A DNA stretch of 32,572 nucleotides from the IMG/VR virus record IMGVR_UViG_3300028586_000749; one strand, 5' to 3'. Positions 19,404 through 20,985 of this stretch are shown here, in pieces (the stretch's first letter is position 1; each line of letters starts with the position of its first letter). This stretch comes from an uncultured virus (IMG/VR IMGVR_UViG_3300028586_000749) (lineage: Duplodnaviria > Heunggongvirae > Uroviricota > Caudoviricetes). A model generated the notes under the pieces. It searched no databases and was not told the origin of the DNA. It worked only from the letters and a program-made list of their open reading frames with translations. The position numbers were made by a program, and so were the translations under genes.

Positions 19404-19454
19404 CTTTTGCCTGTTGTACAAAATAGTTAAATTGTTTTGTACAACAGGCAAAAG
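19404..19454. terminator. inverted repeat upstream of tmRNA
   Basis: CTTTTGCCTGTTGTACAAAA / TTTTGTACAACAGGCAAAAG. Confidence 0.7.
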
Positions 19455-19507
19455 TATGTTATACTTCTTTTAGATGATATTCCGATATTATCTTTATAAC
19501 TAAACAT

Positions 19508-19861
19508 GGGCGTGTCCTGGTTTCGATTGATGAAGCGGACACTTGGAGAAGCAAGCAGAGACAGACTACATATTCTCTTCAATAAGTGTAGTAAAAATAA
19601 ACGGCACAAAAACCGATTTCGCTCTAGCTGCTTAAGCGAGCGGAGGGTAGATAAGGCATTCTCGCCCTTTCTATAAACCCTCTCATAAAGTGAGAATAGT
19701 TTAAACAAAGAGCTTCTAATTTGTTTAAATGAATTTTAATGAAGCAACGGCGTTCCTGATGAGGTAAGCAAAGCAGGAGCCTAACACTAAATTTACCTAA
19801 GCTTGTAGAAGGCCGAGTTCAGTACATTAAGACAGGGGTTCGATTCCCCTCACGTCCACCA
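19508..19861 (+). ncRNA. ssrA: tmRNA, tag (A)GTKTDFALAA
   Basis: 5' GGGCGTGTCCTGGTTTCGA; 3' AGGGGTTCGATTCCCCTCACGTCCACCA; G3-U70 alanine pair; tag ORF 19603-19635 ending ALAA-TAA. Confidence 0.96.
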
Positions 19862-19903
19862 TAAAAAGTATTAGATTATTTTAGAGTTGTTAGAAATATA
19901 AAC

Positions 19904-20110
19904 ATGACTACTAATCTAAAAACAGTTCCCATCCTAACTCATTTCTCAGCTTCCGAGAAGGTAGAAAGAAACATTCGTAATTTCTTGTTTACTCTTCATG
20001 TTGGTGAAAAAGTTATTTTAGAAAACAGTAAACAAGGCATTACTGCTGTTGCTACCGTTGATAGTTTAGATATTAGCCGTTCAAATGCGGTATTTGTATT
20101 AGAAAAGTAA
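19904..20110 (+). CDS. hypothetical protein
   Basis: 68-aa ORF between tmRNA and the next promoter. Confidence 0.65.
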   Translation: MTTNLKTVPILTHFSASEKVERNIRNFLFTLHVGEKVILENSKQGITAVATVDSLDISRSNAVFVLEK

Positions 20111-20163
20111 TTGCTTTTCTGAAAAATGTGTGATAATATACTAGAAGTGTAATTTATTCACAT

Positions 20164-20254
20164 GGCATGGTGGCAGAGGCAGGATTAATGCGCCCACCTT
20201 TGTAAAGGTGGTGTAGGGGTCTACCCCTCGGAGGTTCGAATCCTCCCCATGCCG
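20164..20254 (+). tRNA. atypical long-variable-arm tRNA-like gene (Tyr-GTA or Ser-like body) with 8-nt anticodon loop TTTGTAAA
   Basis: GGCATGG/CCATGCC acceptor, G discriminator, GCA/TGC D-stem, CCACC/GGTGG stem, AGGGG/CCCCT variable arm, GGAGG-TTCGAAT-CCTCC T-arm. Confidence 0.82.
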
Positions 20255-20306
20255 CGTTGGTGAAGTACGCCACACAAAGGAAACCCTAATCAAGAAATGA
20301 GAGAAG

Positions 20307-20873
20307 ATGAGAAGCACATTACTTTTAAATGCGTCTTATGAACCTCTCTCTGTTGTATCCGCGCAGAGAGCGGTTACCCTAGTTATTCAAGGCAAAGCAA
20401 CTGTTGAAGATGCCAGCCCCTACTTTTTCCACGCGTCAGGTGGACTACAAATTGAAATTCCATATGTAGCGCGTCTGACCAAAGAGGTAAAAAGAGGACG
20501 AAACGCTAGAGCGCCCCGCTTCTCACGCAGGGGGGTACTCATACGTGACAACTTCACATGTGCTTACTGTGGAAACTACGGTGACACGATTGACCACGTT
20601 CTACCACGTGCCCGTGGTGGACTTTCAACGTTTGACAACTGTGTAACAGCTTGTAAGCGTTGTAACCACAAGAAGAGTGACAAAACTCTTGCACAAATGG
20701 GTTGGACAATCAAAACCAAGCTTACACATCCTTCACCTTACAGCAACATGCTTAACAAGGTACGTAACAACGATGAACTATTCGATTCTTGGATTGAATA
20801 CATTTCATGGTACGACGAAGGTGCCAAAGCTGAAAAGGCTAAAAGAAAAGAACTTCTAACAGAAGCTAACTAA
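20307..20873 (+). CDS. HNH endonuclease with PLMP-like N-terminus (IshB-like)
   Basis: RDNFTCAYCG, TIDHVLPRARGG, NCVTACKRCNHKK; N-terminal LLLNASYEPL...RAVTLVIQGKA. Confidence 0.88.
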   Translation: MRSTLLLNASYEPLSVVSAQRAVTLVIQGKATVEDASPYFFHASGGLQIEIPYVARLTKEVKRGRNARAPRFSRRGVLIRDNFTCAYCGNYGDTIDHVLPRARGGLSTFDNCVTACKRCNHKKSDKTLAQMGWTIKTKLTHPSPYSNMLNKVRNNDELFDSWIEYISWYDEGAKAEKAKRKELLTEAN

Positions 20874-20915
20874 CAAAGAACCTCACCAGAAAATTTTCTG
20901 GTGAGGTTCTTTGTT
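20872..20915. terminator. perfect 44-bp palindrome, terminator
   Basis: AACAAAGAACCTCACCAGAAAA / TTTTCTGGTGAGGTTCTTTGTT. Confidence 0.8.
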
Positions 20916-20985
20916 TTAGGAATAACATAAAAAGATTTTGTGTTATGATACATAAGTTAAATTTAAAACACGAATGGAATAAACT

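Follow-up and report, generated by a model that had tools for sequence, protein, structure and literature searches.

A tRNA-Ser-derived RNA with a remodelled anticodon arm directly upstream of a PLMP-like and HNH nuclease gene

Background

The stretch of DNA analysed here, 32,572 nucleotides in length and filed as an uncultured virus under IMG/VR record IMGVR_UViG_3300028586_000749 (hereafter, the window), carries a gene for a small HNH nuclease that starts a few tens of nucleotides behind an RNA with the shape of a tRNA and an anticodon arm of non-canonical build. The question raised by this locus is whether the RNA and the nuclease belong together and, if they do, in what way. An earlier note, made from the sequence alone, had proposed that the protein resembles IshB, that the two genes are co-transcribed, and that the RNA might serve the nuclease as scaffold, guide or antitoxin, or else that the pair might be a homing-type element tied to tRNA genes. 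The reading that we favour, at a probability of roughly 0.45, is that a nuclease of IshB type is expressed directly behind a relic, non-decoding tRNA-Ser(CGA), a position that its family often takes, and that the two share their transcription.

Results and Discussion

The nuclease has an HNH domain and a predicted PLMP-type N-terminal fold

The gene of 188 codons described by the earlier note is confirmed as an open reading frame (ORF) and by Pfam, which found HNH_5 and HNH only, at residues 85-130. Neither Pfam nor the AlphaFold2 (AF2) model revealed a RuvC domain or any other domain beyond the N-terminal one and the HNH in the 188-aa protein. Residues C85, C88, D96, H97, N111, C116, C119 and N120 are conserved in alignments of 24, 28 and 118 sequences, and D96, H97, N111 and N120 together with the zinc-binding residues are invariant in the family alignments; the HNH domain is predicted to be catalytically intact. 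The best structural matches of this domain were NbaCas9 (Z 8.8), YnpsCas9 (Z 7.4) and IscB (Z 7.0 and 6.5). The IscB and Cas9d models of NCBIfam match residues 70-132 only and stay far under their cut-offs (53.4 bits against 175 for IscB), a full-length profile matches IscB and Cas9 over the HNH domain only, and a Foldseek search with the whole model was dominated by the HNH domain.

The N-terminal domain was therefore compared separately, as residues 1-64. Its model is composed of four strands (residues 3-7, 13-18, 31-42 and 48-57) and one helix (residues 19-27). When it was aligned by VIA-align against 48,161 chains, the top five matches were all PLMP domains of IscB or IsrB, namely HfmIscB (9k2z; Z 8.1, root-mean-square deviation 1.7 Å over 49 residues), TbaIscB (Z 7.0), DtIsrB (8dmb; Z 6.2) and two further IscB chains (Z 5.9 and 5.5), and the next match was IF3-N with a Z of 3.1. 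The PLMP domain of IsrB (residues 1-59) is described as a four-stranded sheet with a helix that resembles IF3-N (PMC9581776), and the order of our matches, PLMP and then IF3-N, reproduces this published relationship. With Foldseek, the top 8 rows were likewise all IscB or IsrB (probability 0.91-1.0, E 0.08-0.3), and no match of residues 1-64 was obtained at E <= 1e-3. The N-terminal sequence pattern that had been picked out by eye is conserved across the family, with P13 and A22 invariant and K30 and A31 conserved in at least 90% of the members.

We conclude that an IshB architecture, PLMP plus HNH, is supported by the modelled structure (AF2, VIA-align and Foldseek against the IscB PLMP domain) and not by the sequence profile; this part of the earlier assignment is supported. 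IshB is described as a protein of ~180 aa with a PLMP and an HNH domain and without RuvC (PMC10734217, PMC11610941). Matched to these review descriptions, the window protein is likewise of about 180 aa and has an N-terminal PLMP-type domain, an HNH domain and no RuvC; it differs in that its PLMP motif is reduced to E-P-L, and in that neither the IS200/IS605 setting nor an adjacent omega RNA is found at the window locus. The family to which it belongs is large. A word-indexed search gave 235 homologues at E <= 1e-3, and a profile of the N-terminal domain matched 5,802 representative clusters at E <= 1e-3 among 1.84 billion representatives; the best 150 of the 5,802 clusters contained short family members only.

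The upstream RNA is related to tRNA-Ser(CGA) and varies in its anticodon arm

The Rfam tRNA model (RF00005) matches the RNA at 20164-20255 with 36.7 bits (gathering threshold 29) in a permissive scan; a scan with default filters missed it. The RNA has a 7-bp acceptor stem, a long variable arm, a canonical T arm, a discriminator G and no encoded CCA. A discriminator G fits serine identity, and seryl-tRNA synthetase (SerRS) ignores the anticodon. The anticodon arm consists of 5 perfect pairs, an extra outer C-G pair, one unpaired U and an 8-nt loop (UUUGUAAA) in place of the canonical 5-bp stem, 7-nt loop and triplet anticodon; ARAGORN reads four bases as the anticodon, and the Rfam tRNA alignment needs insertions in this arm. 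The description of a tRNA-shaped RNA with a non-canonical anticodon arm, given in the earlier note, is thus borne out by ARAGORN, by the Rfam score and by the loop itself. An independent DNA run (X4) yielded a contig that covers 19450-20901 with 2 differences from the window (at 19930 and 20042), and because this contig is identical over the RNA, the 8-nt loop is not an assembly error. A scan of 20050-20950 with Rfam found the tRNA only and no omega-RNA-like non-coding region. None of the 120 viral-contig loci that were fetched with a 15-base piece of the RNA held the RNA.

The origin of the RNA is indicated by L081, an 885-kb metagenome contig which encodes the closest homologue of the nuclease among the loci listed (52% identical protein). 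In L081, a tRNA-Ser(cga) scoring 43.6 bits is followed 60 nt later by the HNH gene and then by TrxB, an ORF of ~70 aa and DnaB. This order is shared by the window, where the tRNA-like RNA and the HNH gene are followed by TrxB, then a small ORF and then DnaB. With the D loop and the anticodon arm set aside, the window RNA and the tRNA-Ser(cga) of L081 are identical at 64 of 66 positions. By sequence comparison, the RNA is an orthologue of the tRNA-Ser(CGA) gene; the acceptor stem, D stem, variable arm, T arm, discriminator and genomic place are alike in both. The two anticodon arms, on the contrary, share almost nothing, the arm of the window RNA being 4 nt longer, with an 8-nt loop and no serine anticodon.

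A third strain, represented by a read-derived contig (X10 record 3), was compared with the window over 20160-20243. The two are the same over 20160-20197 and 20214-20243, and all 9 differences, 8 substituted positions and one deletion, fall within 20198-20213; for 9 changes to fall together in a single span of 16 nt out of 84, p is about 2e-5 after correction. There are hence three different arms on one constant body in three related organisms, and the canonical 7-nt loop occurs in L081 only. This clade comparison rests on the window, L081 and read-derived contigs.

The codon usage of the window was counted in 26 ORFs (>=100 aa, opposite-strand overlaps excluded), which were hand-picked and are otherwise unvalidated. 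TCG accounts for 18 of the 511 Ser codons and CGG for 3 of the 316 Arg codons. The window is AT-rich (GC 33-42%), and UCG is rare in this AT-rich small genome; therefore, decoding by an RNA of the tRNA-Ser(CGA) type would be dispensable.

A second 8-nt anticodon loop (UUUCCGAG; ARAGORN 'tccg'; Rfam 57.1 bits) is found in the tRNA at 1750-1825 (+), whose acceptor, D and T arms are closely like those of the tRNA-Met at 1893-1967; 67 nt separate the end of the former from the start of the latter. This tRNA would correspond to the CGG codon. For both tRNAs with 8-nt loops, the corresponding codon is the rarest of its family, which fits a small AT-rich genome whose need for decoding by them is relaxed.

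Anatomy and transcription of the unit

The features of the locus are collected in Table 1. The earlier note had described a promoter with TTGCTT, GATAAT, an extended TG and a spacer of 17 nt. The three sequence elements are present and the spacer is 15 nt; a spacer of 17 nt is obtained only when TAATAT is taken as the -10. The motif is missing from a generic consensus promoter scan because TTGCTT fits 3 of 6 positions only. Both TTGCTT and the TG-extended -10 are kept in L081, and the -10 ends 26 nt before the tRNA in both genomes. The end of the RNA lies about 51 nt before the start of the HNH ORF, and the inter-ORF space upstream of the HNH gene is 196 nt. The short hairpin reported between the RNA and the ORF is recovered in the minimum free energy (MFE) fold; it is not conserved in L081 and is altered in an X10 variant contig, and the spacer between the RNA and the ORF is not conserved in the comparison with L081. 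No terminator-like site was found on the + strand from 20092 to 20872, the interval between the RNA and the gene included, which agrees with what the note had said of it. Its 44-bp palindromic terminator is a perfect hairpin with a 20-bp stem and a free energy of -34.3 kcal/mol (z -10.8), and none of 200 shuffled sequences was as good.

Table 1. Features of the tRNA-like RNA and nuclease locus, in positions of the window
Feature	Position	Strand	Basis or remark
tmRNA (transfer-messenger RNA) gene	19508..19861	+	ARAGORN; Rfam 133 bits; adjoins the tRNA-like RNA directly in a related strain
298-bp segment with 68-aa ORF and promoter-like motif	19862..20159	+	missing from one related-strain contig (X10)
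Promoter-like motif	20111..20137	+	TTGCTT 20111-20116, 15-nt spacer, GATAAT 20132-20137 with TG before it (TGTGATAAT); read from sequence
tRNA-Ser-derived tRNA-like RNA, class II body	20164..20255	+	ARAGORN 'tRNA-???', four-base anticodon tgta
Remodelled anticodon arm	20193..20213	+	extended stem, one unpaired U, 8-nt loop UUUGUAAA
Short 5-bp hairpin between RNA and ORF	20258-20272	+	MFE fold
PLMP-like and HNH nuclease gene, 188 aa	20307..20873	+	ORF; Pfam; AF2 predicted local distance difference test (pLDDT) 95.9
PLMP-like N-terminal domain, residues 1-64	20307..20498	+	domain-alone AF2 pLDDT 90.8
HNH catalytic core, two CxxC pairs	20559..20696	+	Pfam; invariant alignment columns
Terminator-like perfect hairpin, 44 nt	20872..20915	+	20-bp stem 20872-20891 / 20896-20915; overlaps stop codon

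Two leaf-litter metatranscriptome runs each gave one contig identical to the window (20064-20844 and 20189-20866), and both contigs span the RNA and the gene. They end just 5' of the terminator hairpin, and the tmRNA is far deeper than the RNA and the gene in both runs. Cover by RNA contigs is lacking at 19882-20043 and at about 20867-20972; such holes in contigs prove nothing. This pattern fits a single transcript ending at the hairpin. The co-transcription proposed in the earlier note is in keeping with the absence of an intervening terminator and with the two spanning contigs, although assembled contigs show neither transcript ends nor a single transcript molecule and cannot prove that part of the claim.

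tRNA genes recur beside phage members of the family

To see how the family is placed elsewhere, its relatives on viral contigs were considered (80 loci, 30-43% identity, N-terminus included). A tRNA was present at 11 of the 80 loci, always on the strand of the HNH gene and in 10 cases within 1 kb. Control windows from the same collection, fetched with an unrelated 15-mer, held a tRNA in 1 of 120 cases, which gives a Fisher p of 2e-4 for the excess and of 5e-4 for the within-1-kb count, a comparison that must be read with the shorter length of the controls in mind (mean 2.1 kb against 5.1 kb). On one contig (L284) a run of 21 tRNAs comes first and the HNH gene begins 39 nt behind the final one; on another (L351) the distance to the preceding tRNA is 46 nt, and on a third (L345) the gene is flanked by tRNA arrays. 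Among isolate phages, 73 records had a homologue, and 9 groups of them were inspected. For 4 of the 9, those of Arthrobacter phage Mimi, Microbacterium phage Cece, Tunturiibacter phage Tunturi_5 and Myxococcus phage Mx1, a same-strand tRNA ends 13-58 nt before the gene; the tRNAs of the S-CRM01 group are >1 kb away, and the remaining 4 groups have none. The phage tRNAs upstream of homologues have ordinary anticodons and are of many isotypes. A quick tree was built with 87 non-redundant members, obtained from 239 sequences by a cut at 80% identity, and the members with an adjacent tRNA are spread over at least 7 separate places in it. The nuclease family is tied to tRNA genes in phages.

No tRNAs are annotated in the record of Tunturi_5, and ARAGORN finds 11 around the HNH homologue. 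One of them (L367, 1311-1387) is called tRNA-??? with a two-base 'anticodon' and a 6-nt loop, and aberrant tRNAs thus accompany the nuclease family also in a phage array. At four cellular loci (L002, L003, L072 and L073, one of them labelled Omnitrophota), a same-strand tRNA-Arg(ccg) lies 76-166 nt after the HNH homologue; the 3 that were kept in the tree form one clade with a support of 99 in the Shimodaira-Hasegawa-like approximate likelihood ratio test (SH-aLRT).

That HNH genes are common in tRNA arrays is known already (PMC5966550, PMC6409571). HNH endonucleases are reported as the most widespread coding sequences in mycobacterial tRNA arrays, with one group carrying an endonuclease annotated as Cas9 (PMC5966550), and phage tRNA clusters carry HNH core genes which are thought to spread the clusters (PMC6409571). 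The available parts of these two articles do not mention a PLMP or IshB nature of the HNH genes. SegB is a homing endonuclease of the tRNA region of phage T4 (PMC2330249). Like these endonucleases, the window nuclease and its phage relatives beside tRNAs are encoded by small same-strand genes between or just after tRNA genes. SegB is a GIY-YIG enzyme, whereas the window nuclease is HNH, and the window gene differs from the tRNA-array endonucleases in being chromosomal and syntenic with TrxB and DnaB in two divergent genomes, the window and L081. As is the case for free-standing homing endonucleases, the gene stands beside a tRNA, which ends 51-60 nt upstream of it in the window and L081; no presence/absence polymorphism of the HNH gene was seen among the window, L081 and X4, all of which have it. 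The recurrence of tRNA adjacency in phage arrays fits free-standing endonucleases of homing type. The earlier suggestion of an element tied to tRNA genes is supported in part: the adjacency recurs among the phage members, and the cellular loci listed show no such tie.

The window and its gene neighbourhood

Judged from its gene content, the window is a chromosomal stretch of a cellular genome. ARAGORN, Rfam and Pfam show that it encodes RecA, DnaB, TrxB, a tmRNA and eleven tRNA-type genes; its proteins recur on contigs of ~0.79 Mb, and the nearest named sequences of its RecA are from Actinomycetota (63-69% identity). No blastn match to the window region was obtained in the phage collection. 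The neighbours of the HNH gene are a 68-aa ORF without a family (19904..20110; no Pfam or NCBIfam match) and, on the other side, TrxB. In X10 record 3, the end of the tmRNA at 19861 is joined straight to 20160, the 298-bp segment in between being skipped. No transposase family was found in the 18 further window ORFs or the 12 neighbours of homologues that were scanned.

Some further features of the window were observed. A hairpin of 20 pairs at 19406-19452 (+) lies just 5' of the tmRNA gene and overlaps a promoter-like site at 19438-19465. In positions 1-6400, nine tRNA genes stand within 6.4 kb among ORFs without a Pfam family (1061-1717, 2534-3052 and 3136-3954); this part of the genome, which measures roughly 0.8 Mb, resembles an array. 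The tRNA-Gly(tcc) at 4163-4239 (+), with 35.3 bits over positions 3-68 only of the Rfam tRNA model, is the weakest tRNA in the default-filter Rfam scan.

The favoured reading and its alternatives

According to the reading that we favour, the promoter-like site would drive the tRNA-Ser-derived gene and then the gene of the IshB-type nuclease, and the strong hairpin would end the unit. The anticodon arm would have been rebuilt, with its stem lengthened and its loop of 8 nt not expected to decode, and the other arms would be nearly unchanged. The body of the RNA would be kept because it is still processed, possibly also serylated, and may carry the promoter together with a processing site that releases the downstream mRNA; alternatively, it may be kept for some unnamed use of a serylated tRNA-like RNA. 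The nuclease would be of homing-type ancestry, such free-standing endonucleases being able to settle next to conserved tRNA genes and profit from the transcription of these, and a specific partnership between the RNA and the protein would probably not be involved.

A number of observations weigh against this reading. First, the likeness of the N-terminal domain to PLMP is structural only: the M and the second P of the motif are replaced, with the invariant P13 and L14 kept, and a profile of the N-terminal domain searched against the PDB sequences finds no IscB chain at E <= 10. Second, a constant body with an arm that was changed three times differs from simple decay and points to some retained function; no reading offered here explains this combination fully. 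Third, the association with tRNA is not seen in cells. We listed 160 cellular loci, 80 from species genomes and 80 from metagenomes, of which all but L081 encode proteins 30-48% identical; the scan of species genomes, made with a single protein, reached distant relatives only (30-45% identity), and that of metagenomes gave one close relative, L081, among the 80 loci listed. A tRNA was located upstream in 1 of the 160 (L081), a tRNA-Arg(ccg) downstream in 4, and no tRNA in 155. The upstream gaps of cellular homologues are often too short for an RNA gene, and next to these homologues stand housekeeping genes particular to each clade (GNAT, hydrolases, a methyltransferase, prolyl oligopeptidase, lipoate ligase and amidase). 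The adjacency in the window could hence be plain synteny. Fourth, the pair formed by the window and L081 (SH-aLRT 98) groups with no phage member from a tRNA array, in a tree whose backbone is poor (35 of 84 inner branches unresolved). The excess of tRNAs at viral loci is reduced in weight by the shorter controls and by the known tendency of HNH genes from many families to accumulate in tRNA arrays. Finally, one of the RNA contigs begins at 20064, which is upstream of the proposed promoter, contigs not showing transcript ends.

The alternative that survives best is chance: a decaying tRNA-Ser pseudogene would happen to precede an unrelated, vertically inherited, stand-alone HNH gene, and the joint transcript would be meaningless read-through. 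The lack of an upstream tRNA at 159 of the 160 cellular loci listed speaks for it, as do the housekeeping neighbours, among which no transposase was seen where they were scanned, the rarity of UCG, and the density of tRNA genes in the window (12 tRNA/tmRNA calls by ARAGORN in 32.6 kb), which makes adjacency cheap. We nevertheless regard this explanation as doubtful. The order of tRNA and HNH gene is kept in L081 even though the proteins are only 52% identical, the near-identity of the RNA body next to a changing arm is not what uniform decay would leave, and the adjacency to tRNA recurs in members of the family from phages.

A working tRNA with an expanded loop, charged with serine and reading a quadruplet such as UACA or misreading a triplet, would be a natural frameshift suppressor or recoding tRNA. 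SufJ and SufB2 are reportedly frameshift-suppressor tRNAs with an extra base in the anticodon loop, and the window RNA is like them in having an 8-nt loop in a tRNA-shaped molecule. Reproduction of this loop by an independent assembly, the intact acceptor, D stem, variable arm and T arm, a discriminator G in line with serine identity, and the occurrence of a second 8-nt loop in the window tRNA at 1750-1825 can all be cited in its favour. However, the stem of the window RNA, in contrast to SufJ and SufB2, is altered too, and the lengthened stem with its unpaired U should misplace the loop on the ribosome; a related strain has yet another non-canonical loop; neither TACA nor CGGA coincides with any of the 130 generic candidate sites for +1 frameshifting in the 32.6-kb window; and no quadruplet-dependent gene was found in the window. 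We consider such a tRNA improbable.

Equally improbable is a dedicated RNA partner, in which the PLMP domain would bind the upstream tRNA-like RNA, much as 3' omega-RNA hairpins are bound by the PLMP domains of IscB and IsrB, and the RNA would serve the HNH nuclease as scaffold, guide or antidote. The idea draws on the predicted PLMP fold and on IsrB, whose PLMP domain contacts a terminal hairpin of the omega RNA in which the Shine-Dalgarno sequence lies, immediately ahead of the ORF (PMC9581776). A similar geometry, a structured RNA 13-60 nt before the ORF, is seen in the window, L081 and 6 phage loci, the body of the RNA is conserved without decoding, and joint RNA contigs exist. Against this, most family members have no adjacent tRNA, and a family-wide dedicated partner is not supported because only 1 of the 160 cellular loci listed has an upstream tRNA. 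The tRNAs upstream of phage homologues, being of many isotypes with ordinary anticodons, do not look like a dedicated RNA. The window RNA offers no variable, guide-like single-stranded segment, its variable part being a stem-loop; the 196 nt between the ORFs leave no space of omega-RNA size, and Rfam finds the tRNA only; and the spacer is not conserved. The role of guide, scaffold or antitoxin which had been suggested is thus not sustained for an RNA that compares as an ordinary tRNA-Ser(CGA) orthologue. A broader idea is that the PLMP domain, which is like IF3-N, lets nucleases of IshB type bind tRNA-shaped RNA, and that the tRNA or tRNA-like RNA lying 13-60 nt ahead of the ORF acts as an RNA handle; we hold it to be very improbable.

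Significance

Within the IscB, IsrB and IshB group, IshB is the sole member without experimental work in the literature searched, as far as the available parts of it go. A large PLMP and HNH family, represented by the 5,802 clusters given above, is presented here with a predicted PLMP fold of IscB type, and most of this family lies outside insertion sequences. In phages and in the small genome of the window, PLMP and HNH genes sit directly behind tRNA genes, an arrangement that opens concrete tests of what the PLMP domain binds and what the HNH domain cleaves. If the handle idea were true, the tRNA-adjacent IshB genes would picture the state from which the partnership of omega RNA and PLMP in IsrB and IscB, and hence Cas9, grew, and in the lineage of the window the handle would have been freed from decoding, so that only the anticodon arm varies. 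A frozen tRNA body whose anticodon arm has been rebuilt across three related organisms would be a clear example from nature of a tRNA that gives up decoding.

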